Under the pieces are notes generated by a model. The model had not been told where the DNA came from. It saw only the letters and a list, made by a program, of their open reading frames with translations, and searched no databases. The position numbers and the translations under genes are program-made. A stretch of DNA of 64,000 bases from Antedon mediterranea (taxonomy: Eukaryota; Animalia; Echinodermata), in NCBI RefSeq assembly GCF_964355755.1, contig NC_092673.1, positions 16,611,548 through 16,675,547 on the forward strand. Direction: 5' to 3'. Shown in pieces: positions 33,801 through 63,489 of the stretch (the stretch's first letter is position 1; every line of letters begins with the position of its first letter).

Positions 33801-36800
33801 TGGTATGTATATAAACTAACATTTGTTTGAATATTTATATTAAACACTAATTAAGTGAAGAAAAAAGAAATGTAGGATGTTGTCTACAGTTAGTTGACAT
33901 AGCAGCACTTCAATCATCTACTGCTCTGCATAAATGTATGCAAGCACACCTAACTAAATTTTGTTTATACAGATATTTCCAATATTGCAACAGTTTGTTG
34001 ACATAGCAGCACTTCAACCATCTACTGTTCTGCATCTGCAAACAAAAACAAATATGTTGATAATACTATTATTTCTACAAAATCATCAAAGGTTTACTGA
34101 TGGTATTTAAAATGCATACTGTGCTTCCTTTTCACAGCATGTTTTATTTTTGCTTGTACTTCAGGTTGTGTGAAGATTAAGTGATTCTTCATCACTGACA
34201 TTGTTTTTGCCAGAACTGACTTTACACCATACAGACTTCTTTTTTTTTTTTGGTTAAATGACCAGTGAATAAGTTCACCCACCTGCTCATTTAACAAGCT
34301 GATTCCAACATGCCATCACTTTAAAAATTCCACAACATGAAATTCGAGCATGTGCAATTTTGGAGATATGTTGATCTCCAATTTTCTGCAGTTGGACATG
34401 AAGTCTGATATATTTGAAGCTGTAAGTAAATTAATATATAAATTTAATTAATTCTTTAATAAGCAGCTGAGTGATAGAAACTCAATTCAGATTTTTTTTT
34501 TTTTTTCTTACCAACAATATCAATTTCATTCTCAGTCATTGCATTGGTATGGTTGATTGCCTTGTGTATGTCTGAAAATTGGTGGAAGATAGGTGTATAA
34601 ATCAATTGTGATTGCAATTTTTCAAGAAATCCAATTGGGATATCTGAGCTTTGTTCCTCTAGAACCTGGTTTGATGCAGATGTTAGCTGGTGAATAATAT
34701 CAACCTGTGAACAATATTGTCAATTGGGTAAATATTCAAACATTGCAACATACAACACTTAGTTTTTTAATAATAGTATTGTCATTAAATTTAAACTGTA
34801 TACTATCTTAAGTAGATGGTGTATTGTTTATTTTTATAATCACCTGGCAACACTTGTGTACATGATTGCCTACAAAGGCCTTCCCATGATAGGCTTGACT
34901 AGGAACCTTGTTTTGTTTGGAGAACTTCCTCCATTGCACAAACAATTGGCCCAGTGCCCTATTTCAAACCTTTGTTCAATTTTGTTTCCTAAAAAAAATA
35001 CATAATCTGTGTAAACTACTTTTGAATAATTAATTATGCATTCAGAATACAGTATATGTATGTGTAATACTATTCGTACTTAACATGCCATGTCTTTGAT
35101 TTCTTGTTGCTTTTCAGCAATACTCATAATTTGTGTCTTTACAGAATCAGATGCTGATGCTTCTGATTTGCAGTTTAAAAATACAAGCGGAATTTCATCT
35201 TCTAGGTGGGAAATTTGTGCTTGCATATCTGAGATGTGCTTCATCAATGCTGAATTTGTTGCAGCCTGCTCTACAGTAATTTTGTCGAAATTATTGACAC
35301 CTCCATCGGAATTTTTTTTGCCTTAACCTGAAGATCTCTGAATCCAATGTGTGCATTTCATTTTCTAACAGGTCATATAATTTCTTAAACACTCCTAAAG
35401 AAATATGGAGGCTTGGTACAGATACCTGCAATAATAACACATTTTCAAATGTAACCTCAAGATTTTATATTAGTACTATTACTTTATTATTTCAGTACTT
35501 GTACAAGTGTCGGACTGTATTATGATACAAATTGGTGAGCAGCATCATCATGGTGTTGTAGTAGAAAGGATGATAGTAGACATCAATGAACAATGGTGTT
35601 TCATTTTATCATTCTCCATAATGTGTGTCATGGTCACCTAAAGGATGCACATTGGACAAATGATGCACTTCTACCGGGGGTCATATGGTAAGTCACACAA
35701 TTGATAAGTGCGATATTTCCTACATGGTTGATGTCAATAGGCACCATTGTTTTTCTGATTACACTCCTGTATACCTCCTTGGAGTTTACCATTCCATGAT
35801 CTTCAAATAATTGATAGTCTTCATTCAATGTCTTTATAATAGACCTGTGGTCTTTTGGAACATCACCTCTGCATATCTGATGTTTGGTATGATGGCAAAA
35901 GAGACTGCAGTACCTTCCTAATGAAAGATTTGAAATAACAATTAAGGTTTGTATACAATAAATTATAATTCACATTAAATGCATATTAAATAAGATACTG
36001 TGTCTTACCATTTGGTCCATTGAGGCCATACATCCCTGACAAAAACTCCTAGTCTCCAAAGAAAAAGAGACGAATTTTGTGGCCCCTTAAAGGAAAAAAA
36101 AAATTAAAATTAATACAGCACACAAAAAAAGATTGTTTTTTAAAAATTAAAATGATTTTAATGTTGAAGACATACCTCCATTCAGTTTCTTCGCATACAT
36201 CCGGAAATACCCTGCTGATGTTGATGGTATAATCTGCTGACTCAAACATTAGAATAACAATAATGTTGCGAAGGGCATTTGGTTTCTCTAGACTGCAAAT
36301 TTGCAGTTCAAATTTCCTACTGCCACCTCCTTTGTCACCTCCAAAAATTTGATCCATACTTCTTTGTTGTAGAACTTTAGATTGTTTAATCTGTAAGTGA
36401 AATATACAATATTGTATTTTATTGTTTGCATAAATTTGGAGTTACAAAATGTAAAATAAGCATGTTATTTACTCATGATGGTGGTCCAAGTAGGAAAACA
36501 TCAACCTCTCAATATTAATCACTGGCAAAACAGGGGCCAGAAAATATTACAAATGCATTCTCAGCATTTGCTGCATCGCTTTTTAAGATGAATTCATCCA
36601 TGGAACCATGTAAGTATCCATCTACAATATCCAATTGGTGATCTCGCATTTTGCCTTCTGATGCTATAACACCTGGTTTCACATATCTTGAATAGAATTT
36701 AGAATAACAATTGTAAAATGACATTTTAAAATACAGCTAATTAAAATGTTGATATATTATTTTATGCACCACTATTTTCTTAATTTTCATACTTGCCTTC

Positions 36801-39768
36801 TTAGTTTCAGAATTTGTTGCCAAGTAAGATCGCAGTCAGCTTTGATGGCCAGTGACCTGTCAACATCATCAATGATACCAATTGGTGGCAAGTTAGATTG
36901 CATTTTATGATTAAATTGAAGTTGAGCTGAATCATGCGATATTGAATTTCGTATGGTTGATAATTCATGGGTGCGTCAACTGAGGGTTCTTTTGCCAACA
37001 CAACTGCTGGATTTTGTAGCTTTTTGTCATAGTAGTAATTGTCATTGGCTGTAAGTAAAACATTCTTATATGTTTTATATTTACAAGATTTATTGTCAAA
37101 GTTTAATACCTTATTTATTCATGTTCAGGGAATGTGTTTTAATACAATATTGTGTGGTAGGGTAGTTTATTCCAATAAATTCGGTAACAAAACACCCTGC
37201 ATTGATAGTCAGTTTTTAAAAATATGTCTAAAATATATATACTATTATATATAATTTTTAGGTTCATTTGATTTGCCCATTATTCAATAAAATCTCTGTA
37301 CTTTGGTACAGTGGTTTTGTGAAAAATGTTGGCTTTCTAAAAAAAAATAACTCACCCTTCTATTTGTTGGTAACTCAATTTTTTTTTTTTTTTTTAGTGA
37401 TTTGGATACCAACTTCCTTGCAAATTGCTGGACAGGTTCGGGTATCTTCTCGCCAACAATTTCTTTGTTTATGGTCTTAATTGCATTGGTTACAGCATTA
37501 TACCGTTGCTCAGCCTCTGTTGTGCATTTATGCTGACTGCACTAGTTATACTTCAGACATTTCCCACACAACCGACATTGCAATTCAACCGTTTGCAAAG
37601 ATTGTTGTACCAGTAATGATGGTTTTTTTCATGTCACGTTCAAATGTTATCGGTGACGCACAGGCAAAACATGGGGAATGTATGTAGTCGAAGAGTACAG
37701 AACAATTGACAGAGACAGTACATACAAAAATGGTGGGAACACTGAGTTTCTGCATTATCAAGCGACAGAATATGTTTACAAATAGAACATTGAAACAAAG
37801 ACAGTGCTGATTGGTCATAAAGGGTGAATTGCTCAGTTAATGAATTGAATTTTAAATCTTGCATGAAAGTTTTTTTATTGAATTTTATCCTGTGACCTTG
37901 TTTCTGTTGATTTTCATAAAGATAACAAGCTGTGCACTGTAAATCATCATGTTGTCTCCAGATGTAAGGTGTAATTAATGTCGTTTGTTTGTATGCAGCT
38001 GATTGACAAGTATGACAAACATATGATGGATGAACATTTTTATCTTCTTCAACAATTTTAATGTTTAGAAAATTTAAAGTTTGTGTTTTGATGCTTTTAA
38101 GTTCATATTTTCAGTCAGAAATTTTGAATTTTATTCCACAAATTCTACAAATATTTAATAAAGATTCAGAATGGAAATCCATAATTAGTATTATTTGTAG
38201 GCCCTAGGCCTAATTAATTATGTAATTTTTGTAATCAGCAATTTATTTACACAACACAAATAATACAATGAAATACAGTAAAATGATAATGTAAATAAAG
38301 TTTTATGAACAGTACAGGTATAGTTCAGTGTTTCTCTCTCTCTCTGGCTAGGCATCTTAATATTATGCCAAAATACCCACATCAATTGTCATTAGAGTTT
38401 AAAAAAAAGTAGTCTTATTTACCAGGTGTGTAGAGCCTCTAACCAGTTTTTTACGTCAAAACGAAAACTTAAACGGTGAAAGAATAAATATTGAAAATGA
38501 TCGTTGAACAGTCAGTTTTTCGGTGAAGTGACTACTACTGTACTTTGCGCTTTTTATTGAGGGCGCTATTTATTTACAATTCTATCGAGTACGGCGGTCG
38601 TTAAAACAGTCGTACTATTTTTACTAATAACTGAATTAATATTGCATAATTTGAAGTATTACTTCATTGCTTGTTGTAAAACTAATATATTTACTTGTAA
38701 ATATTATTATTTGTTGTTAATATTTTATATTATGATTGTAACGTTTAATTTACTAGCTTAGTAATTATCGCTATCTCTGCGATGTTCGCTGGGCTCTCGC
38801 GTTCAGTCAAGCGTGCAAAACCTTAACAACAAAGGCTTTGGTTAGCATAAAAAATAAAAGCGCGTTGAAAACACACTTTATGTCCATAGTTACTATTATT
38901 CGAAACCACCGTTGCAACTATTGGTTCTTTAAAATAAAGCATTTCGCCATAAAAAGCATGCTTTATAACAGTTTATTACATAAGAGGGGCATAATATACA
39001 AAATTGAATTTACAGTAAAACTTTGGACAAAAACTGCTGCCACATTTTTTTTATTATTATAGTGATCGACTAACGTGTATAATTCTCGTCTATTTTAGGT
39101 GCATTCAGATGTGCGTAAGCTTAACGTTGCCATTGACCGCTGTTGCATTGAGCATGAAATCGGGTGTGATGTACGATCAATTGACGAGTAGTGAACAAGA
39201 AGTATACGTTACATTTGCTATTGCAACAGGAATGTTTTCCTTTATGTTTGTGGAGACTTTTATGTTCGGCTCTAGACGAAGAATAGGTCAATTACACTTT
39301 TATTTTACGGCCATTTTTTCATTATTCATATCAGTCGGTATGAAAAAGGATTATTCGATGAGTATACTATTTTTAACATCTCAAGGTAACAAGGCTACGC
39401 TTCGACTGCTACACTTGATGGAAGTGTATTGGAAACGTGAGAGGCCGAGAAAGACACAATATCAAGTGACCGTCTGCATACATACAGTACTTACTTTACT
39501 CTTTAATTTGATGTTTCCAATACTCTGCTTTTTTTCTCTGGTTTTACATAGGCACCGAAACACGTTCACTGAACTTTCCACAGAAGGTTACGTAATTTTC
39601 TGTACACTGCTCATTTTGATAGTCGTGTACAATACATCGTCTGTACTGTCAGCCGTCCGTCTATGTAAAAATATTTCTAATGATTTAAGTGAACCACAGT
39701 CTATCGAACTTACATCGACGGCTCCGCCTTCTTACGATGATGTGTTGGCAGAAACTGCCATCGTGTAA
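30815..39768 (+). CDS. Multi-pass (about 6-7 TM) membrane protein, 273 aa, with C-terminal PPxY; exons 30815-30966 and 39099-39768, 8.1-kb intron
   Basis: Exon 1 is 50 codons plus AT|GTAAGT. Acceptor TTTTAG|G TGC ATT CAG ATG completes a phase-2 codon in frame with ORF 39109-39768; 822 nt in total. Tail APPSYDDV. Confidence 0.7.
31093..31921. mobile_element. Mutator-type (MULE) non-autonomous element
   Basis: TIRs of about 135 bp (GCGATTTT...AAAATCGC) flanked by a 9-bp direct repeat AGCCAGGTA at 31084-31092 and 31922-31930. Confidence 0.85.
33018..33870 (+). repeat. Direct duplication at about 470-bp spacing, plus a partial third copy
   Basis: aatgaattcagtaatataa.agatactgtttaaatggtatgtatattatttaacc...ttttcagaacacatggat at about 33018 and 33487; partial at about 33790. 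Confidence 0.75.
33900..38182 (-). pseudogene. Multi-exon Chapaev transposase pseudogene (Chapa zinc domain, RING, DDE core)
   Basis: MDFHSESLLNICRICG, DKNVHPSYVCHTC, WRQHDDLQCTAC (Chapa); CSIC...CSHHFCMYC (RING); GGDKGGGS, FFGD*EFL..MYGLNG, VPSLHISLG, QAYHGKAFVGNH, SPKLHMLEFH, NEQVGELIH. Several stops and frameshifts. Confidence 0.85.
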
Positions 39769-45859: not shown

Positions 45860-46300
45860 TGCATCCGCTCAAGTTCAGCAATGATTCTTGTATGTCCAGA
45901 TATCGGTCTACATCGTGGAGAATTGGAGAATATGAAAAAGGCAAACGATATATTTTACAGACTTTAGAAACGAGATTTGTTGTAACAAAAAAAAAAAGCT
46001 AGGATTGCTTATAGAACTATTTGAGTTGATAGGACATGGGTGTATGGCTGCTAAAATAAAACAGTATGCAACAACAACAGATTACGTCTCACCTTACAAA
46101 AAAAAAATCTTTCTCGTTTACCCCACAGACGTATGACAATTCATATTGCATCTGAAATGGGAGAGAGTGACATGAATATTTTAAAGCGGTTTCTAAAAGG
46201 CGAATTACCAACAGCAGAATTTTTTTGAGAATTCAATTGAGCTGTTTAGTGTGATGGAGAAAATGGGATACATCTTTTCTCGAAAAAATTGGAAAGGAAT
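45860..46300 (+). pseudogene. Tandem-DED (vFLIP-like) pseudogene, paralog of 46790-47475
   Basis: CPDIGLHRGELENMKKANDIFYRL*; LGLLIELFELIG...VSPY; CCCCACAG|A CGT ATG then RMTIHIASEMGESDMNILKRFL...ELFSVMEKMGYI. Stops, frameshifts and a lost donor. Confidence 0.75.
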
Positions 46301-46574
46301 AAAACAATTATCATATAATATCAGCAGTGACCGGGTTTAGACGAACTTTGTCACATGGTCTATGTTTTGGCCAGTCTACACCCAACTTTGAGACAATGCT
46401 ATTGTTTTTAGCTTGTCTCATCTTGCTTTTCACACCTATCAGAAACACTTCACTATTGTTCATGAGAAACAGCCAGTTTCAATCCCTCCCATTGTGTGAA
46501 CTTGCCATTGTTTCTGGCTTTCACACCAGTCCCACCCTTTCCACTTATATTCCAAGTTTCCTCGACTTTCTGCA

Positions 46575-46625
46575 TTCTCACTCCTGAAGACGATCAAAGC
46601 ATATTGATCGAAACGTCGAGAAACT
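46575..46625 (+). ncRNA. Minimal type I hammerhead ribozyme of Penelope-like type, within a probable pLTR fragment (about 46325-46700)
   Basis: CTGAAGA at 46584-46590, extra C, stem II GATCAA/TTGATC with AGCATA loop, GAAAC, GTC cleavage triplet at 46615-46617, palindromic ACGT stem III, stem I CTC/GAG. Confidence 0.75.
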
Positions 46626-46789
46626 CAACAGTTCTTTTCAGAACTAATACATCGAATACAACCGTTTTGTCATAACTTTCGTCATCACAAACAGTATACA
46701 AACGAAAACAATGACAACTGCAGCTGCTATGGCCACTTTCGACTACTTAAGAGAGAGAGAGAAAATCAGTCAGTTTATATTTGTTCACC

Positions 46790-49449: not shown

Positions 49450-49480
<31 letters not shown>

Positions 49481-50877: not shown

Positions 50878-51573
50878 ATGATTTCCCACCAGCGACAAAT
50901 GCGTACCATATGCAATAGAATAGAAGAACGAAAGCGCCATTCGTTTGGATTATGCGTCCTGAAACCGTTGAGTGAATGCGTTGCCGACAATAATGCAGCA
51001 ACGGCGGACATGGACAAAAAATGTCTAACGTTCGTAAGCAACGTCAAGTCAACTCTAGAGTTTCTGTGTCGCCAAAGTAACATACGATTAGAGCCGTTTC
51101 AGAAGGAAATGTGTAACGCTGTCATAGCTGGACGATTCAACAAAGTGTTTGGAGATCGAGCGTCGAAGCTGAGAATTCCATCACTTTGCATACTCGGCGT
51201 ACTGTCCGACGAGGAGGCACAGTCGATGACCGAACCGGCTCGATGGCATCCGGCCGTACGACATTCTGCCGCTAGAAAGATAGACGAATTCAATAGAAAG
51301 TTTACGGTTGTCAGAGTGCCTCGACGTAGCGGCAAGAATCGCGCCGGTCAACTTGTGGTGGCATCTCTTCTTGTACACGAAAATAGTATATCCGTCGTTA
51401 ACTGGGCTCAGGATTTGAACTGCGCGCGTACCAATCGAGAAGACGTCATTCGTCTATTGGAGATGGCTCAACGACGATACGCGTTCACGTTCAAAGGTGT
51501 TCCGGATGGAGTACAAGTGTTGCAGTCTACGGGCACGACGGCAAACTTTAGAAGCAAAGCAAACACGGCAAAC
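50878..51573 (+). CDS. DNA-packaging terminase ATPase subunit (UL15/UL89-like), exon 1
   Basis: Adenine-binding LEPFQKE and Walker A VVRVPRRSGKN; ends ANTAN|GTGAGT in phase 0. Confidence 0.92.
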
Positions 51574-51605
51574 GTGAGTATTGTTGTTTTTATTTTTTTT
51601 GCATC

Positions 51606-52712
51606 ATGAGTCGCTCCGAGGCCTATCCAACGTTCCTTGCCGGTTTAACGTACATTTTCAAAAACACGTCCATCATCACCACCAGCCATCACGTGAAACT
51701 TGTCAATTTGATAGGCGCCTGCATTGGCACAGCATCGAAAACATCGTACAAAAATAAACTGGAACGATGCAACGAGCAACAGCGACGTCATTTCGATGCG
51801 GCCGTATCTATCGGTGGTGGTGGTGGTGATGATGATGATGATAGCATGACGCCCAAAACGGCGTTCGTCTACTATTTTCTCGATACACTCGCTCGGCCGT
51901 ATCACAGACACATTGCTGCCTACATAACAAATTTTGATGAGTTAATGCAATGGATGCAAGCTGATCGTCGTCGCCGACGCAACAACCACCACCACCACCA
52001 CCACCACCACCAGACGCGAAAACGGTCATCATTTGTGGTGCCCTTAACCGACAGAATACACGATTCGGCCATTCTCAAATGCATTCTGTTCCAATTGAAT
52101 CATGTGAAAAGAAAACCGTTGCATCCGATGATGAAAACAATTTTGGAGTTTACAAAGTCCAGTTGGCCGTTCAATCTAATGTTTGCCATACCGAATCGAT
52201 CAAATGCACTGGTAGAATGCGTTCTACTTTTAAACAAAACGCGCAATGAGAAATACTCTGTTTCGCTCATAACTCAAGCGCTGTCGTTATTAAGCAAAGA
52301 TGAACTATCCGAGATGAAGAGCATAATGTTTGTTCAGAAACGATGCTCTCAGATAGAATTCTTTTACGATCACAATCCAGCGGCATTTGGATCAGAATCG
52401 ATTGTTTTTTGTCGCTACTGTTATATAATTTTAACTTACGTAGATCTGAAGAACAGGCCACCGACAAAAGGGATGTATATCGACGAGAATTCTCTCTTAC
52501 CCACCTGTTACAACTGTCATTCGAGAAGATTGGCTTCTCTGTCGTTGGACGGTGCCGGTGTACGATTGACAGTTAAACAGCCCGATTTGGCAATGATGCG
52601 TTCGTGCCCTACTTGCAGTGAGATAACTTCTCGAACAATGTGCGTAACGTGTAAACGTATACAAGAAGAAGAAGAAGAAGAAGAAGAAGAAGAAGACAAA
52701 TTTGTTCTTTAG
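51606..52712 (+). CDS. 368-aa protein with four C-terminal CxxC pairs, UL49/ORF66-like candidate; nested in terminase intron 1
   Basis: FCRYC...TCYNCHSRRLASLSL...SCPTC...MCVTC. The family assignment is by motif resemblance only. Confidence 0.7.
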   Translation: MSRSEAYPTFLAGLTYIFKNTSIITTSHHVKLVNLIGACIGTASKTSYKNKLERCNEQQRRHFDAAVSIGGGGGDDDDDSMTPKTAFVYYFLDTLARPYHRHIAAYITNFDELMQWMQADRRRRRNNHHHHHHHHQTRKRSSFVVPLTDRIHDSAILKCILFQLNHVKRKPLHPMMKTILEFTKSSWPFNLMFAIPNRSNALVECVLLLNKTRNEKYSVSLITQALSLLSKDELSEMKSIMFVQKRCSQIEFFYDHNPAAFGSESIVFCRYCYIILTYVDLKNRPPTKGMYIDENSLLPTCYNCHSRRLASLSLDGAGVRLTVKQPDLAMMRSCPTCSEITSRTMCVTCKRIQEEEEEEEEEEDKFVL

Positions 52713-52733
52713 ATATTTTTTTTTTTATTATTA

Positions 52734-53306
52734 TCAAGAAGGTACTTTTGAGCGATTAGGTGGTTCGGGCAAGTTGACAAGTTTATTACAAATCTCTCGG
52801 TCGACGAGCTCACGTGCCAATGTATTGTCATCATCATTCAATTCGTCCTCATCGCTGCTATCATCATCATCATCATCGTCCAACAATCCTCGAATTGAAT
52901 CCATTGCAGTATTGTGTCTAAGTCGTCTGTTGTTAACGCTTCCTAAAAGTGAACATATCCTATTGGGATTCATGCTCTTCTCTGATTTTCTGAGAGAGTA
53001 ATCTTCCTCCTTGAGTCGATCGTATTGCAGCCTGTAAAACGTTCGTAATTTAGACGAAAGTGCATCTTTCTCCAACTTTAACATGGCGTTCTGAGACGTG
53101 GTCAACATTCGTTCATAATTCGACTTTCGTCTGATCAACGACGACAGCATTTTCGCATCAATTCCATTCTTCAAACCTGACTGTATACTTTCTTGCATTT
53201 GCATCGTCTTTTCGTCGAATGTGTGTTGCATGGCGGCAATGTTGCGCATAGATTCTACTCGTTTTTGTTCAATGGCTTCGCCTCTTCTTTTTCTTTTACC
53301 AAACAT
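52734..53306 (-). CDS. ESCRT-III Snf7/CHMP4-like protein, 190 aa; nested in terminase intron 1
   Basis: Basic N-half and acidic C-half. LSSLIRRKSNYERML compares with CHMP4 ALQALKRKKRYEKQL, and MNPNRICSLL with MDIDKVDELM; DEDEL; MIM2-like LPEPP. ATG at 53306. Confidence 0.7.
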   Translation of the reverse strand: MFGKRKRRGEAIEQKRVESMRNIAAMQHTFDEKTMQMQESIQSGLKNGIDAKMLSSLIRRKSNYERMLTTSQNAMLKLEKDALSSKLRTFYRLQYDRLKEEDYSLRKSEKSMNPNRICSLLGSVNNRRLRHNTAMDSIRGLLDDDDDDDSSDEDELNDDDNTLARELVDREICNKLVNLPEPPNRSKVPS

Positions 53307-53343
53307 GTTTGCGTGCTGATGCAATAAGGCAGCATAGCGCACA

Positions 53344-53745
53344 ATGAAACCATTTGCGCCGTTAATAGTGACTTTTACGATATTCGTCGTTGTTCTGTAC
53401 AGTCTTACGTCGAAATACAACTGGCAAGGGAATACGTACGATAAGGAGAAGATAAGCTACAAGCAACTGTTGACGTCCAATATAATTCTGTTTGCCATAA
53501 CGTTCTACAGTGGACTGAAATATCCTCTCATCAGATACTATTCGAGTTACTACGGTGGTGGCCGGGGTAGACTCATGTTCATGACAGAGACTTTACTTCG
53601 CATGACGGTAATGATGGGAATCGATTACAGAGTGCAGAACATTATCGTGTCGCAAATGTCATCGCGTCTGGCCATCATGTTTGGGGATATCATGTCGATC
53701 GTCATCGAAGCCAGTATGGAACAGTACACGCCTCACAGTGGGTGA
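53344..53745 (+). CDS. Small membrane protein, 133 aa
   Basis: ATG divergent from the Snf7-like gene; 2-3 hydrophobic segments; fills the gap between neighbouring genes. Confidence 0.55.
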   Translation: MKPFAPLIVTFTIFVVVLYSLTSKYNWQGNTYDKEKISYKQLLTSNIILFAITFYSGLKYPLIRYYSSYYGGGRGRLMFMTETLLRMTVMMGIDYRVQNIIVSQMSSRLAIMFGDIMSIVIEASMEQYTPHSG

Positions 53746-54500
53746 ATTCATCGATAGCGTACCGTACCGTATCCAGGCCACGCATGACTCTACAGCACGT
53801 TCATAGGTGAAATTGAGTACACGATCAGCGCGTTTAACAAGAAAACGTCTGTCATCGTAAAGAAAACAAAGTCCGTCTGCGCTTGGCATTCCGTCAAGAT
53901 CGCATCGATGGATCGTTAACGGACCACCTCCCGATACGGGCATGGACGAGAACATGTGCCAAATTAATAAACATTTGTACATGCTTGTAACTTGATCATC
54001 TTTATTTATTTCTGTTGTCGGTGTCATTTTTTTCAATCCATTCACGTAGTCACAGACTCTTTCCACGTCCACGTCACACGCCTCCATCCATTTCCTGAAC
54101 GCCGTTTCGTGTCCAATGATTGCCGGATCGACCACCGTACTTGGATCGACAACGAGACGAAAAAATGTACACGTTGCCGCTCTGCGTTCATCGTGTCTGT
54201 CCGGATTCGCCAACATACACTCGAGCAGGTTTCTACTCCAAACATCAAGATTACAATGCTCGAAACACGCGTACTGCTTGGACGCCATGCACCGACGGCG
54301 TTCGGCAAAACACAACAGTTTTGCAATCGATGCCGTACACTCGAGACTAATTGTTTTTGGCAACAACGTATAGCTAACGCACGATTCTACATATCGAATT
54401 TCTTTCTCGATTTCAATTCTAAGTTTTTCAACGGCATTCTTGACTCGTTTATCGATGCGTTTGGCAAAACCAAACTCATCGTAATAATTTGATGTTGATA

Positions 54501-54550
<50 letters not shown>

Positions 54551-55146
54551 GGTGGCGGTGATGATGATGCTGGAAGTGGAAATACAACGAGTGATGTCTC
54601 TTCTTTTTTTGCTGTTTGTTCTGTTGTTTCGCTGAATACGGTAGTGACAAGATGATGACACTCATCTGTAAGGTTTTCATCTTTAATTCTACACCAAAAA
54701 CATTTGTAGCCGACAATGGGACAGCATCCGATCGGCATTGCCGGTACGGTTCCCATTACAGTCACAAATCTCCAAATTGTTGATAATCTTTCGAGAATTT
54801 TGAAAGAGTGCACATTGGTCCAGGCAAAGAGAACATTGCGTTTCAATATACTGTCCATGTCGGCCATTGTACAACACTCGGACGTTATCGTGGTTGTGTC
54901 GAACAAGAGACGTTCGATGAGCGCAATGCATCGTGCGTAATAGAGAACATCTTGTTCATCGCCTTTTTTGGTACATATACTCTCCAAATTTCCTTTGAAT
55001 TCCTTCAACAATTCTTTCAAGTAAGCGTTGTCTTCTTCTTCTTCTTCGTCGTCGTCGTCGTGATGATGATGATGATGATGATGAGACCATTCTATCCATC
55101 TACGTTCAACGCGTGACTCTAAACTTTTCCATAAATCAAACGACAT
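53659..55146 (-). CDS. Hypothetical protein, 495 aa, with His/Asp/Glu and Pro/Ser runs
   Basis: Long ORF in terminase intron 1; Cys-rich patches; no family recognised. Confidence 0.75.
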
Positions 55147-55256
55147 AATCTAAAATATGGAGGTAATCAGTTGTCTCTCCTCTTCCTTCTTCTCCTTCTT
55201 CTGCTCATGTCGACGAGTATTCGCTATTAGATTGGTCAAGAGAAGATTGATTAGGA

Positions 55257-58200
55257 TTAGAAAGTTATCGGAGCTGGTAACTGGATCGTCTGTTGGGTCA
55301 AACATGGTGCTGCAGTGATTACCTTTGGATTGTGTCTAAGATTGTTTTCGAGAATACGTCCGACCAATTGTACATACCAATCTTTCTCCGACCAATCTAT
55401 ACGCATATCCTTGCCAAAAATTACGTATCGTGCATCACCTCTACGGCGATACTTGCACGAATTGTCTGACGCAAGAAAACAAATGGGAACGCTACTTTGA
55501 CTCGGTTTTACCAATGTCACGCCCGGTATTTTTCCCATGAACGAAATCACTTTCATTACAGTTCTATCGCCTTCGGTTACATTGCCTTTGCGTACGACCA
55601 TAGGCGCAAAATATGTCGAGCCACATCTGTCGGTCAATTTTGCTGCTGCTTCTACTGTTGATACATCTTCATCATCGGTGGAATTGATGTAATGTCTTGC
55701 TTGATTAATCACTTCGTTGAAAGTAAACTCTCCGGTTCCGAATAACTGATGATAGGACGTATTACTTGGACTGTAATCGACAACAAATTGTATTTTGTAT
55801 TCATCATCATCCTCATTGCCACCATTATGCTCATTATCATCATCATGTTCATCACCGTAATAGTCATGATTGTACTCAGCTTCATCGTATATCTCTTCCT
55901 CCTCCACTTTATCCTCTTCATCTTCATCATGATGTAACGTATATAACGAATGCGACGTACGTTTTTTATTGAAAAGTTTCCGTTGTAAGTTTGCAACCTG
56001 TCGTTCTCGTTCGCTGTTTGCAGTTTCAACTTTACTAGTTAAAAATTTAACATCAGACTTCAAATGTGCAATCTGTCCATCTTTATATAGATTTTGGCGC
56101 TTTTCTTGCTCCAATGACGCTTCGATATCTTTCATTCTTTCATGTAACACATCAGATCCACCATCTCCTCCTCCTCCACCGCCTCCGTCGCTTTGATTCT
56201 TTATGAATTCAGACAGTTTCAGATACGATTCGGATACTTTTCGCTGCGAATGTTCCAATTCCTTTTCGAGACTTTCGATGCGCTTTTGTGCAGTCAAGCT
56301 GTGATTTTTTAAAATAATTACCTGAGCGGCAAGAGAGGATATTTCTGTATTCTTGTCGTCGGATAACCGATGTGTTTCAGCTAAACTTTTTTCCTTGGCA
56401 GTAAACTTCTCTTGAAGTTTAGCGTTTTGCGTACACAACGAGTCACGAGCTTTTCGCGCTTCTTCTAGATCACGTATTGTCGACTTCAATTCTGTTTTGT
56501 GATTGCTCGACGCGTTCGCTGCCGACGTCAACTGTCGCTGTATAGCAGTGCTGTGTTCTTTCGCGACACGTTTCATCTCTGCGTCGTGTTTTTGTCCTAG
56601 TTTAGTTACTTCAGATTTCAGTTGTTTTTCGAGTCGATCACGTTCCTCGTCACGTTCCCGCGTGTGCTGTTTCTCGGCCTGTGTCAACATGTCGAGCATC
56701 TTCTTTTCAGTCTCTTTCTTCGTGCTCTGTTTAGCTTCCGACACGTACTCGGCGTGTGTCTCGATTGACTTTTTCAGTCGCTCTTCTAAACGTTTTCGAG
56801 TGAAATTGTCCTCTGCAGCTTTGCTCGTCAACTCTCGAACCTGTCTTTCCAACAGGACACGATGTTGAGCTGCTTTGTCACGCTCCATCTTCACTTCTTC
56901 AACACGTTTCTTCCATTCATCTATTTTTTCGTCGCCATCTCGTTTCAGTTGCGCTACCTTCTGTTCGGTCTCGACAAGAGTTTGTTTCAAATCATCTAGA
57001 TTCTTTTCGTGTTGAACCGCATCTAGATTCTTTTCGTGTTGAACCGAGTTTTGCCTCTTGTCCTGTTCTTCAATCTCCCTTCTCATTTCGTCCAGCTTGA
57101 TGGTGAACGTCGTGTTTGCGTTCATCAGTTTATTGTTGAGTTGTTCTCTTTGCAGATGCGCCGAATCGGTGGTCTGTTGCAAGTCACGACCGAGTTTCTG
57201 TACGTTTTTCTTCTCGTTTTGCAGCTCATTGTTCAATTTTCTCAGATCGGTCAAATACGCCTGCTCTCGAGATTTTAACATGTTCTCTGCATCATGTTTT
57301 AACGAAGCAGAGTTTATTTTTTCGGCATCAAGTTGCGACGCCAAATCGTCAACATGTCGGCTCATCAACTGTTCATTTTTTTGTACGCTCGACTGATACA
57401 ATCTGCTCTTTTCTTCGTACGTTTGCAAATCAGTTTCCAACTGTTGAATTCGCTGCCTGTACGTTGTCTCCGAAAGCGTGTTGGCCGTGTCCAATCTTCT
57501 GTTCAGCACGCGCAATTCACCAACTTCGTTTGTGAGCGCTTCGATGCGACGACTCGTCTGCTCGTCAACGTGTTCTTTTGACGATATCAATTCGGATTGC
57601 TTGCGCTTCAAAATCAATTCATGTGCGCGTGCTTCGTCCGTCTTTTTGTTAAGCAAGGCTTTTAGAGTGTCTGACTCGTCGACATTTTGCATTTCGGTGT
57701 CGTGAAGTTGTTGCTTCATTTCGTCCACCAAACGTTTACTGTTTCGCAGTTCGCCTTCGGTCTTGTCCAGTTTCGTTTCCAACTCTTTAATTTTTGCGTC
57801 GCTCACTCGCGTCTTTTTTTCATTTTCTCTCGTCGACTCTGCATTCCTGGTGGCCATGGTCTTCTTGAACTCTTCGTGTTCTACTCGTTGAGTCTCGAGC
57901 GTGTTCAAAGCCGTCCGTCGTTCTTCTTCGGCTTTTGCCTTTGTCCATTGCATGACTTCAATCTGCGATTGGGATTCGGCATTAGAATCGGGCTGAGATG
58001 ATATCCAATCTTCAATATCGTAGAGTTTTACGTGCATTGTACTATTGTGAGCGTTCACATCGTCCGAGATTTCACGCAATCTTTGAACGGTGTCTTCGTC
58101 CAAGATGGGCAAATCGTCGTTTGTTGAAGGTAAGATGCTGTTGGCCGTGTTCACGTAAGGAGCGAGCAGTTGACCGATGCTAGGTAAATCATCATCACCG

Positions 58201-60326
58201 TCACCTTCTTTTTCTTCTTCTTCTTCTTCTTCTTCTTCTTCTTCGTGTACAATTGCGGTGTTCACCGGCATGCTTGCTATGGCAATAGATTCGAGCACAG
58301 AAATTGTATCATCGGTGTGTGTACGCGTTTCGGTGTTCATCACCGCCGGCGTCGTACCCGATTCGAGCACAGAAAGTGTGTCTTGGGTGGTGTTTGCCGG
58401 CATGCTTGCTATGTCAATAGATTCGAGCACAGAAATTGCATCATCGGTGTGAGTAGTAAGCGCGTCAGCAGTTTCGGTGTTCATCACCGCCGGCGTCGTA
58501 CCAGATTCAAGCACAGAAAGTAGTGTGTCTTGGGTGGTATTTGCCGGCATACCTTCCATGATGACCAGAGGTTCGAGAACAGAAAGCGTATCTGATGCGT
58601 TTGTAGTACGCGCCTCGTCGTCGTCGTCGTCAACAGTTTCGGTGTTCACCTGCTGCTGCACCACCGACATATTATCAGCAGATTCTGTGTTCATCACCGG
58701 CATACGAGATTCAGAATCGGTAGTAGTGATGTTGGCGGCACGTTCACGCGCTTTAGCCTCCAAACTTAGCAGATGTTGGTAACTGAGTTGCGTTATTTCG
58801 AACCGACTTTGTTCGACCATTGCCATGCCTTCGGTGGCCGTGTCGAGTGAAATCTTGCGCGTTGATTCAGGAGATCTAACCGGTATATTGCAAAGAGCGT
58901 TGAGTAGAATAGCACATACGTTCGCCTCGTAATGGCAACAGTCTCTCCATGGCATGTCATCTTGTGCAGTGGGCGTTCCGAACGGAGGTCGTTCACATTG
59001 AAACGGTTTAAGTTCGTCGATCGTTCCAGTAACGAGTGCATGATCTCTTAGACGAATCTTGAGAAATTCGTGTTTTTTAATGTACGACACGAGCGCACCA
59101 AACAAATGGTCAAAGTCAATGTCCAAAGCATTTCTTTCGTATGGCGCAAAGTCCTCTTGTATCTTTTTTGCCAACTTTCTGATCCATTCGACGGTGGGAC
59201 GTTCCGCCGAGTCAACGGTCAACCACGGAGCATGTGCCGCGTTCCATTTACTCTCAGCTGCCGTGATTTCCGCGTCGATTCTTTCAAAGTTCCAACTGTT
59301 TGTGATCTCTTCACTCTGTCCCAACACGAGATTCCACATGTCGGCTCTGGCGAGCAGTGTAGCATCGCCGATGTGATGAACTATGCGATGTAGTACGAGG
59401 CAAGCGAAAATCATGTACAGATTCGGTCTTTTGTCGAACAGCGCGCACACGTATTTCATCAATCGAAACGTGGTTCCGATTTCCACGTTTTGAATGTGCG
59501 TACACGCTTTCAACAATCTCTCGAAATCATCTTTACTTAATCCGGTTTCGTTGAAGAGAGCATCACGATCGCTGGAATTGTTACCTTGCGTAGATGTGTA
59601 GTGTTTCAGAAAAAAATCTTTCATTGTCAGTCTATTGCCGGCCTGAAACTTTCCCAGCTGTAGAAACGATTTCTCTTTTCCTGCGCCGCCACCGCCTATT
59701 ACAGGCGACTGTGAATGTATACCTGGAACGGCAGTCATTGTTTTGAGATGTTTTGCAAAGTGTATCTTTTGTTGTATTAGATTACCGTCTTTGATGACGA
59801 TTGAGACCCGAACTTGTTTCGAATTTAGAAAGCTACCGCCGAGAAACAAACTGTCGCACAATTTACGCGTTCTCTCTTTCATGTCAGCATGTTTGTTGAT
59901 TTCTGTGATGATTTCAATCATTTTGATTATTTCACACAGACTTTCGTACAAGCTTTTAAGATTCTTTGCGTCGACAACAACTATGCGACCAGAAACGAAC
60001 GCGTTTGAAAACTGTTTTGAAAAGCCGTCCATTCGAAGTAGCTGCGCTTTTAGACCCAGCATGGATCCATCTGGAGGGTAGCCGGATCTGTAAGCAGTCG
60101 ATACCATTCTCATGAGCGTCGTTGTTGTGAGCGTCGGGTCTGCGAGTTCGTCGAGAACTCGTCCAAGATACGGCGTCATTTTTTTCGACTGTTTGCCAAC
60201 CTCTTTATTATCGTCCCGTCCTTTTCTCTTTGTCGGCCTCTGTCTAACAGCCGTCGTGTCCATCAACGTTTCGGTCTGTGATGATGTATACATGATGATG
60301 ATGATGATTGTCTTCGAATTTACCAT
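55257..60326 (-). CDS. Large coiled-coil protein (large-tegument-like), 1689 aa
   Basis: Globular N-terminal region, SVLES...MNTET internal repeats (about 58260-58700), a long heptad region, acidic linker and globular C-terminus; nested in terminase intron 1. Confidence 0.85.
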   Translation of the reverse strand: MVNSKTIIIIIMYTSSQTETLMDTTAVRQRPTKRKGRDDNKEVGKQSKKMTPYLGRVLDELADPTLTTTTLMRMVSTAYRSGYPPDGSMLGLKAQLLRMDGFSKQFSNAFVSGRIVVVDAKNLKSLYESLCEIIKMIEIITEINKHADMKERTRKLCDSLFLGGSFLNSKQVRVSIVIKDGNLIQQKIHFAKHLKTMTAVPGIHSQSPVIGGGGAGKEKSFLQLGKFQAGNRLTMKDFFLKHYTSTQGNNSSDRDALFNETGLSKDDFERLLKACTHIQNVEIGTTFRLMKYVCALFDKRPNLYMIFACLVLHRIVHHIGDATLLARADMWNLVLGQSEEITNSWNFERIDAEITAAESKWNAAHAPWLTVDSAERPTVEWIRKLAKKIQEDFAPYERNALDIDFDHLFGALVSYIKKHEFLKIRLRDHALVTGTIDELKPFQCERPPFGTPTAQDDMPWRDCCHYEANVCAILLNALCNIPVRSPESTRKISLDTATEGMAMVEQSRFEITQLSYQHLLSLEAKARERAANITTTDSESRMPVMNTESADNMSVVQQQVNTETVDDDDDEARTTNASDTLSVLEPLVIMEGMPANTTQDTLLSVLESGTTPAVMNTETADALTTHTDDAISVLESIDIASMPANTTQDTLSVLESGTTPAVMNTETRTHTDDTISVLESIAIASMPVNTAIVHEEEEEEEEEEEKEGDGDDDLPSIGQLLAPYVNTANSILPSTNDDLPILDEDTVQRLREISDDVNAHNSTMHVKLYDIEDWISSQPDSNAESQSQIEVMQWTKAKAEEERRTALNTLETQRVEHEEFKKTMATRNAESTRENEKKTRVSDAKIKELETKLDKTEGELRNSKRLVDEMKQQLHDTEMQNVDESDTLKALLNKKTDEARAHELILKRKQSELISSKEHVDEQTSRRIEALTNEVGELRVLNRRLDTANTLSETTYRQRIQQLETDLQTYEEKSRLYQSSVQKNEQLMSRHVDDLASQLDAEKINSASLKHDAENMLKSREQAYLTDLRKLNNELQNEKKNVQKLGRDLQQTTDSAHLQREQLNNKLMNANTTFTIKLDEMRREIEEQDKRQNSVQHEKNLDAVQHEKNLDDLKQTLVETEQKVAQLKRDGDEKIDEWKKRVEEVKMERDKAAQHRVLLERQVRELTSKAAEDNFTRKRLEERLKKSIETHAEYVSEAKQSTKKETEKKMLDMLTQAEKQHTRERDEERDRLEKQLKSEVTKLGQKHDAEMKRVAKEHSTAIQRQLTSAANASSNHKTELKSTIRDLEEARKARDSLCTQNAKLQEKFTAKEKSLAETHRLSDDKNTEISSLAAQVIILKNHSLTAQKRIESLEKELEHSQRKVSESYLKLSEFIKNQSDGGGGGGGDGGSDVLHERMKDIEASLEQEKRQNLYKDGQIAHLKSDVKFLTSKVETANSERERQVANLQRKLFNKKRTSHSLYTLHHDEDEEDKVEEEEIYDEAEYNHDYYGDEHDDDNEHNGGNEDDDEYKIQFVVDYSPSNTSYHQLFGTGEFTFNEVINQARHYINSTDDEDVSTVEAAAKLTDRCGSTYFAPMVVRKGNVTEGDRTVMKVISFMGKIPGVTLVKPSQSSVPICFLASDNSCKYRRRGDARYVIFGKDMRIDWSEKDWYVQLVGRILENNLRHNPKVITAAPCLTQQTIQLPAPITF

Positions 60327-60333
60327 TATGTCA

Positions 60334-60540
60334 TTAATGACATGTTGCGCATATACGTACGTCGTGTGAAGAAGAAGAAGAAGAAGAAGAAGAACGAGAA
60401 AATGTCATGGCGTCGATCGGCCGATGAACTAATTCAACGTAATTTCTGGTACATGACCACATCAACTGTAAATTCATCATCATCAACACCACCACCAACA
60501 ACAACAACAACAACAACGACACAATCATCATCATCATCAA
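60334..60540 (-). CDS. Possible small membrane or secreted protein, 68 aa
   Basis: Fills the gap between two minus-strand genes; hydrophobic N-terminus, but largely encoded by microsatellites. Confidence 0.3.
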   Translation of the reverse strand: MMMMMIVSLLLLLLLVVVLMMMNLQLMWSCTRNYVELVHRPIDAMTFSRSSSSSSSSSHDVRICATCH

Positions 60541-60597
60541 AATCGTTGTTGAAGAAAGAAAACGTAATCAAGAAGAAAAAACACAAACGAAAACGTA

Positions 60598-61494
60598 CTA
60601 AGATTCTCGATTTAATTTTGCCAAATGATAACGACAAATCTTTTCATTCGCCATGCTCTGTAACAACCTCGAGCACGCTGTCAGTTGAGAGGTCGACACC
60701 TGAAATATCGGAAACATCAACCGATCACCTGGCATGGGTTTCAGTTGAGGAAAGCGTGGTTTTAGAATGACGCTTTCCGCCGAACGAATACCATTCAACG
60801 TGCTCTTTAGTAAGTACACGACCGTTTCGTGACCGTTGCTGAGTAGAAAGTCTTTCTTGGAATATTGTAACGTCGAGTAGTACATAAACACCGACATAAC
60901 GTCGAAAATAAAGTCTACCACGTCGTCCAGCATGTTTTCCTCTGGAAGCGCTGTATCCGGTAATCTGTTTGCTGATACGTATTTTAGAAAGGTGTATCTG
61001 ATTACGGACACGATGTTCTGTTTGCCCATGTTCTCCAAAATCATTTCACAGGCCTTGTGTTCAAAGAAATTTACGTTGTTGTACTTGCATCGTTTCTTTC
61101 GATCGTACAATCGTTCCAGAACCTGACGTACGGTTGTGCCGAAACGAAACATTTTATCGTGTTTATTTCGCGTCGTTGTCATCTTTCTAACCTCTTGCAT
61201 GTTGTCGTATAGCGGCGTATCGAGTCCAACGACAATCGGTTCATATTCGTCTGTATAGAATTCTTTACCAGTCAATGCGCATCTTCGAGTGTTGTGATCT
61301 AAATTTTCCATGACGCAGTCTGCCGACAATGAACAGGTGTGCGTGCGTAGCGACGACATGCACACGAAATTCTCACCGTCTTGCATGGGTTGCACGAACG
61401 TACATCTATTCGGTACACATTCGTGAAGTTCGTCCACGTGATATATGTCGAAACGATTTGCTTGTAGATACGCGTTCAGAGCAGCTGTTGTCAT
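60598..61494 (-). CDS. UL92/ORF31- or VLTF2-like late transcription factor candidate, 298 aa
   Basis: HEC...C...FVCMSSLRTHTCSLSADC...RRCALTG matches the C-x5-H-x-C-x5-C-xn-CxxTG zinc signature. Confidence 0.75.
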   Translation of the reverse strand: MTTAALNAYLQANRFDIYHVDELHECVPNRCTFVQPMQDGENFVCMSSLRTHTCSLSADCVMENLDHNTRRCALTGKEFYTDEYEPIVVGLDTPLYDNMQEVRKMTTTRNKHDKMFRFGTTVRQVLERLYDRKKRCKYNNVNFFEHKACEMILENMGKQNIVSVIRYTFLKYVSANRLPDTALPEENMLDDVVDFIFDVMSVFMYYSTLQYSKKDFLLSNGHETVVYLLKSTLNGIRSAESVILKPRFPQLKPMPGDRLMFPIFQVSTSQLTACSRLLQSMANEKICRYHLAKLNRES

Positions 61495-61512
61495 CTTTAT
61501 TTTTGTTTTCAG

Positions 61513-62079
61513 GCTTCAAGAGGAACCGGTTGTGATATGGGATGGATGGACGAGTATCCGTGGATAAAGCAAACGGCTATGCTATCAACTCTGCCAATCT
61601 TTCAACCTAAGAACGTGTCGGTTCTTTTAACATCGTCGATGACTTCGAGTGATCACTGGTCGCAAGAGTTTGTGAATATTAAACACGATGGACGTGCACT
61701 GGTTAAATACATTACTCAGTCGTACCTGTGCGATGCGTGCTTCGAGAAAGGAACGCGAACAGTGTGCGCTCACAGGCGACATTTGGTACCGGAACACATT
61801 GATGGAAACGACGGTAATGTCGTTCAGCAGATGATGAACCTCATAGCCACCGGAAGCTATGAACTAGAGTGTATGGGCATTCCCGTCTGTTCACCGTCTT
61901 CACTCGCCGAGCGACTTTTTTCCGGTAAATTGCTAACCAAACTGTTTTCAGACGAAAGAAGATCCACCACAAGATCTGGCTTCTCATCGGGTCTGTTGAT
62001 TGGCGTCGATCCAACTCCGTCGGACGTGTCCGGCATTGGATTGGTTGCCGGTGTGTTAACGACGTCGGACGTTAGGCAG
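61513..62079 (+). CDS. Terminase exon 2
   Basis: TTTTCAG|ASRGTGCDMGWMDE (Walker B); VLLTSS coupling motif; YLCDAC...CAH; nuclease Asp in LLIGVDP...SGIGLV; ends VRQ|GTAAGT in phase 0. Confidence 0.92.
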
Positions 62080-62750
62080 GTAAGTCGAACGGATGGTATT
62101 TTGCACGCGGCGCCTCTGCTCTCCATAATTCTTCGAAGCGCGTACGTAGCGTGCCCTGGGAGCCCGGCCCGAATCGTAGACAGACCACCACAACAACTGG
62201 TATTCTGTACTCGATTTCGAATCGTTGCAACGGCCACGGCCAACGGTGATCCGCATCCGACGGAATGCCACATTGGTTGATCGTACGTGTTGGTCAACAG
62301 CTGTACGATGATATTGCGAATGCTATCTATTATCCAATGTTTATCGGTTGGCGTTGATGCTCTGTACTCACGTTCTACATCTGGTAAAAATGTCAAATTG
62401 AACATTTCTATTGCCTGTAAGAGAAACGTGTTCAATTGCGATATCTCTCGTTGTCGACCCAATTCAAATTGCGTGGCGGCCATCATTGCCGTTCTTGTGT
62501 AAGCCAGAATCGATTGTTTTTGTCGTTGTTCGACCATATCTTGTACGGTTGCATCATTCATTTCCACCAACAACACTGTCTCTCTACCACACGTTCTCAC
62601 AATCTTTTCGACAATAGGTAATGCGGATGCGTTAATCTCGTCCGTTATAGCCGCCTTGTCTATAGCGCTCTTCCATTCGAAAAACATTCTTTGTCGTTCT
62701 TGTAGAAATTCCAGATTGCAATACACGGGATGAAATGCATTCGTCAACAT
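61857..62750 (-). CDS. 297-aa protein antisense to terminase intron 2 and overlapping exon 2
   Basis: ATG at 62750; spans the intron and 223 nt of exon 2; contains GSPLAVAVATI. Confidence 0.7.
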   Translation of the reverse strand: MLTNAFHPVYCNLEFLQERQRMFFEWKSAIDKAAITDEINASALPIVEKIVRTCGRETVLLVEMNDATVQDMVEQRQKQSILAYTRTAMMAATQFELGRQREISQLNTFLLQAIEMFNLTFLPDVEREYRASTPTDKHWIIDSIRNIIVQLLTNTYDQPMWHSVGCGSPLAVAVATIRNRVQNTSCCGGLSTIRAGLPGHATYALRRIMESRGAACKIPSVRLTCLTSDVVNTPATNPMPDTSDGVGSTPINRPDEKPDLVVDLLSSENSLVSNLPEKSRSASEDGEQTGMPIHSSS

Positions 62751-62786
62751 TACGCTACCAATTGATTCTCTTTTTCCTTTTCTTTT

Positions 62787-62846
<60 letters not shown>

Positions 62847-62955
62847 ATACAGTTTCTCTCTCTCACTCTCTCTCTCTCTCCCTACTATACGTTGAGACGA
62901 ACAAAAGAAAAGAAAAGCATTTATTAATCGTAATAACCTTTATTTTACTACGCAG

Positions 62956-63489
62956 ATACTTGCTTTGAAACACCACGTTGCACATATGGATCGTATGGAT
63001 TCTTTACTGGACATGCACGCCCAACTAATAATAGACACGGTGAACAGGACCTTGGCTACGTACAATCAGTTGACATTCATGCCAGTTCGTGTGTACGTAG
63101 AACGTAATACATCGCACGCACACGCCGCTCGCATGGCCAAGCAAGTAACGGATCGTTTTGCCGGTACGTCAGTAGACATATCTTTCGAAAAGGAGAGACG
63201 TCGAACGGACGGGCGTAGGTGTGTCGGAATTTGGACAAGAGACAAAGGAAATCTGGTACATTTGTCACAAATGTTGCTGGAGAACGATCGAGTCGTGTTT
63301 GCACAAGACATCGATGACGGACAGATGAGCATTTTACAGGATCAACTGTGTAACTTCAGAAGACTCGTAAAATCCGACGGTAAAATCACGATAAGTGGAA
63401 AGACGGCTGGTGTTCGTGATGATCTTGCCATGACGTTTATTCTGTGGTTGGCGTGGACTTGCTTTCTTTCTAATAAAGTTTATCAATAA
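62956..63489 (+). CDS. Terminase exon 3 (RNase H-like nuclease)
   Basis: TACGCAG|ILALKHH; VRVYVERNTS; ISGKTAGVRDDLAMTFIL; stop within AATAAA. Confidence 0.92.
   Translation: MLALKHHVAHMDRMDSLLDMHAQLIIDTVNRTLATYNQLTFMPVRVYVERNTSHAHAARMAKQVTDRFAGTSVDISFEKERRRTDGRRCVGIWTRDKGNLVHLSQMLLENDRVVFAQDIDDGQMSILQDQLCNFRRLVKSDGKITISGKTAGVRDDLAMTFILWLAWTCFLSNKVYQ

Follow-up and report, generated by a model that had tools for sequence, protein, structure and literature searches.

The split terminase gene

We analyzed a 64,000-nucleotide stretch of contig NC_092673.1 from Antedon mediterranea (hereafter, the window) that contains a predicted large terminase subunit (TerL) gene divided into three exons. All three exons and both introns are on the forward (+) strand. 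Exon 1 (50878..51573; 232 codons, 696 nt) encodes the N-terminal ATPase half with Walker A. Exon 2 (61513..62079; 189 codons, 567 nt) encodes Walker B, the coupling motif, a Cys/His cluster, and the first nuclease Asp, and exon 3 (62956..63489; 177 codons and a stop, 534 nt) encodes the remainder of an RNase H-like nuclease. Intron 1 (51574..61512) is 9.9 kb long and holds at least five nested genes. Intron 2 (62080..62955; 876 nt) starts 24 codons past the first nuclease Asp. The exon lengths are all divisible by three, there is no internal stop, and the exons sum to 598 aa. A sequence-only reading had proposed that three pieces with GT-AG ends join in phase 0 into a protein of this length, and its coordinates, frames, and splice ends were all verified.

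The two donors are GTGAGT and GTAAGT, and each acceptor is a CAG preceded by a pyrimidine-rich tract. The + strand of 47501-63400 contains six perfect GTRAGT sites, two of which are the terminase donors. Five sites in the same region have at least 12 pyrimidines out of 14, acceptor 1 among them; acceptor 2 misses this cut-off. Neither joint (51573/61513 or 62079/62956) is among the 15 of 26 joints listed for run X9 (presumed RNA; 18/30 bins, low depth), which carries no weight either way, and the same holds for positions 62081-63300, uncovered in runs X5 and X8. We infer that the three exons are joined by splicing.

Across the spliced 598 aa, Walker A, Walker B, the coupling motif, and the nuclease residues occur in order. 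This is the organization of the large terminase of Duplodnaviria, in which an ATPase with Walker A, Walker B, and coupling motifs precedes an RNase H-like nuclease that has three acidic residues. The motif order had been recognized before, but the residue following the Walker A lysine, which is atypical for a P-loop, had been missed; no exon 1 was recovered from relatives for comparison.

A search of 1.84 billion representative sequences with the exon 2 protein returned 33 homologous proteins, with top identities of 81%, 52%, and 48%. A profile built from 21 of these 33 rows (A1) finds HSV-1 pUL15 at E 4e-27. Exon 1 matched only two of the full set of 33 by blastp, both alloherpes-like full-length proteins: the 783-aa terminase P0011 (residues 110-299, E 6e-10) and P0010 (residues 59-235, E 2e-8). 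Exon 2 aligns to residues 323-507 of P0011, downstream of the exon 1 match, and the two are colinear. Exon 3 matched terminase C-termini weakly (E 0.005-0.07) and matched exon 3 of three metagenome loci described below (L001, L002, and L004) strongly, with 43% identity to both L001 and L002. Pfam profiles matched exon 1 (DNA_pack_N, PF02500, E 0.01) and exon 3 (DNA_pack_C, PF02499, E 0.0012) below their cut-offs, and exon 3 of L001 and L002 passes the cut-off of DNA_pack_C. Together with Herpes_UL92 on a neighboring gene, these matches are of herpes type and not of the T4-type Terminase_6N. Because the exons align in order to the same terminases and to the exons of relatives, the terminase pieces are more than a chance arrangement, and these comparisons confirmed that they form one real gene. 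Single-sequence PDB searches with each of the three exons gave no match, IMG/VR scans with exon 2, A3, P0010, P0021, and A8 found no relative, and a word-index search for longer homologous proteins found none. The single-sequence fold of exon 1 was unusable (pLDDT 37).

The split layout is conserved in relatives. We recovered four metagenome loci, with exon 2 identities to the window of 52% (L001 and L002), 38% (L003), and 31% (L004). In L001, L002, and L004, an AG precedes the same first codon of exon 2 and of exon 3 in phase 0. Only these three loci extend far enough to include both acceptors and exon 3; L003 shows the donor. The second donor (GT, phase 0, 23-25 codons after the first nuclease Asp) is kept in all four. 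Among the 53 protein matches long enough to judge, the alignment stops at the junction 2 column in 42, continues intronless in nine, and ends early in two. We interpret the 42 stops as gene calls that continued into the intron. A diverged copy of exon 2 is present in runs X1 and X5, and seven of its nine listed differences are synonymous third positions.

Intron positions and nested genes

The first junction had been equated with the site at which UL15 and UL89 are split, and this was found to be exact. In all 48 orthoherpes-type loci from a motif scan, an AG directly precedes the codon equivalent to the start of exon 2. Three loci from Cyprinivirus-sized genomes (290-295 kb; one locus is 100% identical to P0011) also have an AG at the junction 1 codon (3/3), and junction 2 is absent from them; we take these genomes to be cyprinid herpesviruses.

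A UL92-like gene, predicted to encode a late transcription factor, lies antisense in intron 1 (60598..61494, - strand) and starts 18 nt from acceptor 1. It scores 20.3 bits with Herpes_UL92 (PF03048), against a cut-off of 21, and the orthologous protein in L001 scores 34.5 bits, above the cut-off. UL92 is one of six late transcription factors of beta- and gammaherpesviruses (PMC8360532). A profile built from the window, L001, and L002 only was tested on 1150 ORFs upstream of orthoherpes exon 2. In 19 of 20 beta/gamma-type loci, its top match lay on the strand opposite the terminase and no more than 2.2 kb from the acceptor, compared with 2 of 28 alpha-type loci. Single scores with this profile are low (best E 6e-4 among the 1150 ORFs), and the evidence is the positional pattern: as in beta/gamma-type loci, the window has a UL92 homologue antisense in the terminase intron, close to exon 2. 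No Pfam match to UL49, UL79, UL87, UL91, or UL95 was found among the window ORFs. The single-sequence fold of the UL92-like protein was unusable (pLDDT 39).

The second junction leads to a different group. A separate motif scan yielded 11 mirusvirus-like terminase loci, and three of them (L057, L065, and L066, so labeled from the terminase tree and the intron layout) have a phase-0 intron at the junction 2 codon. The position of intron 2 is therefore common to the window, L001, L002, L004, and these three loci. An RNA polymerase was detected in one of three mirusvirus-like records searched (L062, of the intronless type); the two intron-bearing records are small fragments. In the window, intron 2 carries an antisense gene (61857..62750, - strand) whose tail overlaps exon 2 and which has homologues in all four loci L001-L004. 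The junction 2 introns of L057 and L066 contain mutually related antisense ORFs of 165 and 215 aa, which we infer to be MING-1. As described in PMC12768974, MING-1 is nested at one fixed nuclease-region site of the mirusvirus terminase and has no detectable homologues beyond Mirusviricota. It is 129-224 aa long among 30 of 271 rows and lies on the strand opposite the terminase in 28 of 28 rows with gene ids, taking the f/r tags as strand.

The window thus has the layout known from Mirusviricota, a fixed nuclease-domain intron carrying an antisense gene at the same codon and phase. The window gene is longer than MING-1 (about 220-aa core) and shows no clear homology to it. A comparison of the nested gene families with HHalign gave a probability of 0.5% and an E value of 0.11, and 2 of 100 column shuffles scored as high. 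The shared site and layout of junction 2 are clear from the alignments, and common descent of the nested genes does not have this standing. Two unnamed alloherpes-like proteins (P0015 and P0029) also break at the junction 2 column. The site may therefore predate the ortho- and alloherpes-like groups, the mirusvirus-like group, and the clade of the window (clade A, below).

A split terminase with nested genes had been regarded as a hallmark of Herpesvirales. This did not hold, as mirusviruses have one (PMC12768974) and malacoherpesvirus terminases are intronless (PMC2994540). Mirusvirus terminases of Okeanovirales and Styxvirales are split near Walker B, as in the window, and are trans-spliced (PMC12768974). 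The window differs from them in its likely animal host, its exon 1 located in cis 9.9 kb away, its having two introns only, and its herpes-type Pfam matches.

Phylogenetic placement and best explanation

The exon 2 tree comprised 59 rows and 194 columns (18 of 77 rows were dropped as fragments or near-duplicates, and one more earlier), and the tree of exons 2 and 3 comprised 30 rows and 416 columns. The exon 2 tree places the window in clade A, which has 10 rows and support of 100/99; the clade has about 11 relatives (46-81% identity), with matches from run and metagenome assemblies. Among 25 protein matches from one search, none carries an informative name and three are labeled hypothetical. 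Clade A joins two unnamed clades, B and C, weakly (91/76), and these two group together at 99/97. Beside these stand the ortho- and alloherpes-like rows, grouped at 98/93, and 15 mirusvirus-like rows lie apart, split off at 96/87. Clade A is equally well supported (100/99) in the tree of exons 2 and 3, where the ortho- plus alloherpes-like group has 96/91 and mirusvirus-like rows are set off at 92/90. In both trees, the orthoherpes rows make up a separate clade (100/100) in which the window is not nested. Members of clades B and C (L003, L004; P0004-P0009, P0013, P0040-P0054; P0005, P0025, P0032) are herpes-like and have the exon layout of the window. L003 and L004 are strongly CpG-depleted (observed/expected ratios of 0.29 and 0.16), and clade A is not.

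Both trees agree with the sequence-only reading in that the terminase is herpes-like, deeply divergent, and outside the sampled Ortho- and Alloherpesviridae. Orthoherpesviridae (HSV-1 UL15, HCMV UL89, and KSHV ORF29, the splicing of which is described in 10.1101/2024.11.20.624617) share with the window the phase-0 intron before Walker B and the order of catalytic motifs, and the beta/gamma types also share the UL92-type gene antisense just upstream of the acceptor. The window departs from their single-intron gene by a second intron in the nuclease domain. Its intron 1 measures 9.9 kb compared with about 3.5 kb in orthoherpesviruses (PMC13595911), and the other intron genes are unrelated at the sensitivity used.

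The alloherpesvirus affinity that had been drawn from the three exons did not survive the phylogeny. An approximately unbiased (AU) test, with three Cyprinivirus-type rows and three unnamed alloherpes-like rows as the alloherpes references, rejected grouping of clade A with alloherpes-like rows (p=0.018). Moreover, the Cyprinivirus-sized genomes share junction 1 and lack junction 2, and junction 2 is also mirusvirus-like. We consider it very improbable that the locus belongs to a divergent member of a described family, whether an alloherpesvirus, a Teratorn-like element, or a malacoherpesvirus. Such membership would fit the three exons, as described for SalHV-1 (ORF72/80/82; PMC13030845) and for EsHV-1 and WSHV-1 (PMC12567609) and as in IcHV-1, and also the long gene-filled first intron, the best exon 1 matches, the breaks in P0015 and P0029, and a likely invertebrate host, as with malacoherpesviruses. 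It is at odds with the AU result and with the gene content of intron 1, as the primase located in the long intron of EsHV-1 and WSHV-1, according to PMC12567609, was not recognized in the window. Teratorn is a chromosomal alloherpesvirus fused to an active piggyBac (PMC5601938), and no piggyBac transposase or fusion was seen here. Malacoherpesviruses and an amphioxus-associated herpesvirus, all viruses of invertebrates and one of them probably integrated, have intronless terminases as described in PMC2994540, whereas the window gene has two introns. No malacoherpesvirus sequence was recognized among the terminase homologues returned.

A second AU test bears on whether the locus stems from an animal-infecting mirusvirus or from a stem lineage between mirusviruses and herpesviruses. 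Placing clade A beside the mirusvirus-like rows was not rejected (p=0.36). This origin would also account for junction 2 and its nested antisense gene, which fit the MING-1 layout of PMC12768974, and for the short exon 3, which resembles short mirusvirus-like nucleases more than alloherpes-like ones. According to a figure legend in PMC10132985, mirusviruses encode VLTF3, a related factor. We nevertheless find it rather improbable, given the herpes-specific Pfam matches, an exon 1 that matches alloherpes-like proteins only, the UL92 synteny with beta/gamma-type loci, the position in both trees, and the nested genes, between which no clear homology was seen.

Our preferred explanation, which we hold to be moderately probable, is that the three exons specify the TerL of an unnamed large DNA virus lineage, likely on the Herpesvirales side and outside Ortho- and Alloherpesviridae, of which a copy probably resides in invertebrate chromosomes. 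Several observations count against it in addition to the second AU result and the likeness of exon 3. Both trees have long branches and an imposed root and contain no malacoherpesvirus, and the herpes-side branch is unstarred in the tree of exons 2 and 3. No major capsid protein, portal, polymerase, or helicase was recognized among the 29 long ORFs scanned in the window. In L002, the stretch of about 900 bases leading up to the intron 1 genes lacks both exon 1 and the CxxC gene that comes first in intron 1 of the window; therefore, the cis layout may not be general. Since junction 1 is a herpesvirus site and junction 2 a mirusvirus-like site, the locus likely preserves an ancestral gene layout linking herpesviruses and mirusvirus-like viruses.

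Under this explanation, the virus would replicate in the nucleus, and the host spliceosome would join the three exons of late transcripts, either in cis over 9.9 kb or by the trans-splicing demonstrated in mirusviruses. The trans route is a real possibility because intron 1 contains three + strand AATAAA sites and one nested gene on the same strand, and because L002 has no adjacent exon 1. The spliced ATPase-nuclease would pump DNA via a portal into an HK97-type capsid and cut the concatemer; TerL in general is an ATPase-nuclease that fills the capsid and cuts DNA (PMC13595911). Intron 1 would be a gene-filled spacer that encodes the UL92-like factor. This factor likely belongs to a complex for viral late transcription and would help turn on late genes, the terminase among them. 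Intron 2 carries its own conserved antisense gene.

More tentatively, clades A, B, and C could be a fourth family-level branch of Herpesvirales that infects invertebrates and becomes endogenous in them. This branch would retain the terminase locus of the ancestor shared by herpesviruses and mirusviruses, with two ancient introns, the first carrying UL92 and the second a MING-1 homologue. If so, MING-1 would reach beyond Mirusviricota, a beta/gamma late-transcription factor would be ancestral to the order, and the two-exon orthoherpesvirus and intronless malacoherpesvirus genes would reflect intron losses. The order comprises three families, with very few members known from invertebrates, and clade A (about a dozen relatives) with two sister clades would widen the order considerably.

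In the literature, with subscription papers mostly outside the search, we found neither an account of clade A nor a terminase locus that combines UL92 with a gene nested in a nuclease intron. Published herpes-like elements in invertebrate assemblies are likewise divergent and embedded, and they were placed by DNA polymerase alone, in a main text that leaves introns aside and mentions no terminase. The locus joins a beta/gamma trait, UL92 beside exon 2, to a trait described only in mirusviruses, a gene-carrying nuclease intron. With this combination, two questions become testable: whether herpesviruses and mirusviruses diverged after MING-1 arose, and whether viral late-transcription factors were present in the ancestor of the order. 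Routine screens miss such elements, as their terminase pieces score below Pfam thresholds and introns are disregarded in gene calling; these elements can be sought with the exon 2 profile and with the cassette of UL92, exon 2, nested gene, and exon 3.

Host sequences and neighboring genes

Several features of the window make integration in a host genome likely. A high-copy host repeat fragment (approximately 46300..46650, no strand assigned) sits among the viral genes, and its ends are loose in each of the four runs compared. The four best-matching runs belong to one sample of one study and may be the source of the window. The depth of its bin is 30,182 in X1 and 44,027 in X5, compared with about 100 and 0-70, respectively, for the viral block (about 300x in X1). 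The viral block itself is flat near 100 in X1, a contig depth that does not measure copy number. The tail of the repeat (46570-46650) may resemble a Penelope-type hammerhead, and an Rfam scan gave one chance match. A transposase relic (approximately 33000..38400, - strand; DUF1280, PF06918, E 1.3e-7) has an N-terminal Cys/His region, is fragmented, and apparently contains introns. Its CpG observed/expected ratio is 0-0.54, compared with about 1.0-1.6 outside 32-38 kb. Microsatellites number 23 in the 15.9-kb core block and zero in 35 kb of L001, L002, and L004, and homopolymer runs number 13 in 8143 aa of window ORFs and zero in 9413 aa of relatives. A second organism has contigs 96-99% identical over 27 of 30 bins, and a third has fragments.

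We consider it less probable that the same lineage and gene are unintegrated, as a persistent episomal or replicating virus that was co-assembled with the host and acquired host transposons in the nucleus. Large DNA viruses such as baculoviruses can carry host transposons, which would allow for this. The 64-kb window yielded no host gene, no junction between host and virus, and neither element ends nor a target-site duplication, and the core ORFs are intact. L001 and L002 are metagenomic, contain no microsatellites, and look like free viruses; therefore, clade A is not wholly endogenous. A non-integrated virus would be harder to reconcile with several independent host-type insertions, the decayed transposase with its CpG depletion, the segmental duplications and the 6-kb tandem array of 285-nt units, the heavy microsatellite load, and the near-identical copies and shared diverged copy in two organisms. 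Integration in the germline, as the sequence-only reading had it, is thus likely from the repeats, the relic, the microsatellites, and the copies elsewhere, with no host junction in view. The analogy with Teratorn found no support, because the only transposase in view is broken and its candidate ends lack a duplication, with any element ends outside the window.

Further repeats were observed. A 14-nt perfect inverted pair starting with CAC flanks the transposase relic at 32211 and 39064, with no target-site duplication, and is reminiscent of Transib/Chapaev ends. A MITE-like element with 85-nt inverted arms (94%) lies at 31086-31928. An AT-rich element of about 400 nt occurs in three copies that are 78-79% alike and in mixed orientation (2768-3130, 27090-27549, and 43701-44064). 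Tandem units of about 285 nt (at least 20 copies, about 6 kb) fill 15.6-21.5 kb. Kilobase segmental duplications with 96-99% identity span 7400-21500, and an ORF at 5094-6668 is partly recopied at 12383-13168. In L002, positions 1-850 are a non-coding AT-rich stretch bordering a viral block of 53% GC, possibly a host flank or an intergenic region.

The remaining genes of intron 1 received no PDB, Pfam, or NCBIfam assignment. A 368-aa protein (51606..52712, +) with four C-terminal CxxC motifs lies on the terminase strand at the start of the intron and had no match in Pfam, PDB, NCBIfam, or Atlas. By eye alone it resembles UL49. It is followed by a 190-aa helical protein with an acidic tail (52734..53306, -), with a positional counterpart in L002 at 916-1557 (-). 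Its Snf7/ESCRT-III likeness is by eye only and found no support in Pfam or PDB. The idea that mirusviruses encode Snf7 found no support in the main text of PMC10132985. A 495-aa protein without Pfam or PDB match (53659..55146, -) and a 1689-aa coiled-coil-rich protein (55257..60326, -) are both syntenic in L002. Profiles of intron genes (A5, A6, and A7) found nothing among the 1150 ORFs upstream of orthoherpes exon 2, and Atlas was blank for two window proteins.

The sequence-only reading had pointed to capsid, portal, and polymerase B genes as companions of the terminase, and none was recognized within the window. A Pfam scan of the window likewise recognized no herpes triplex or protease, mirusvirus capsid protein, or nucleocytovirus-like informational genes. 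Four further window genes, or their positional counterparts, occur in the same order in L002, which additionally encodes a kinase, an OTU-like protease, and a membrane protein with an Ig domain. By eye, unassigned L002 ORFs at 15902-17500 (+), 15123-15914 (-), and 19066-19905 (+) are like a portal, a capsid triplex protein, and a sliding clamp. Two further genes are conserved in the clade: one of unassigned function (window 39979-41670, -; L001 3731-5335, -; E 1.4e-8) and one for a multi-pass membrane protein (window 42267-43226, +; L002 13532-14557, +; E 1e-15).

Death, DED, and laminin G domains in window ORFs exceed Pfam cut-offs and point to an animal host, and Bcl-2 and F-box matches fall below the cut-offs. 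Head to head with exon 1, a 1063-aa protein (47586-50777, -) carries a signal peptide and laminin G domain repeats, ends in a hydrophobic stretch, and is a possible surface attachment protein. An ORF at 46790-47472 (+) has a DED (Pfam E 1e-12), an apparent short intron, and a second DED-like piece by eye, possibly a spliced tandem-DED, vFLIP-like gene. A Death-domain ORF (-), an unassigned ORF (-), and a Bcl-2-like ORF (+) at 21798-22990 form a probable anti-apoptotic module. An F-box protein with a leucine-rich-like C-terminus (28714-30042, -) is probably host-derived.

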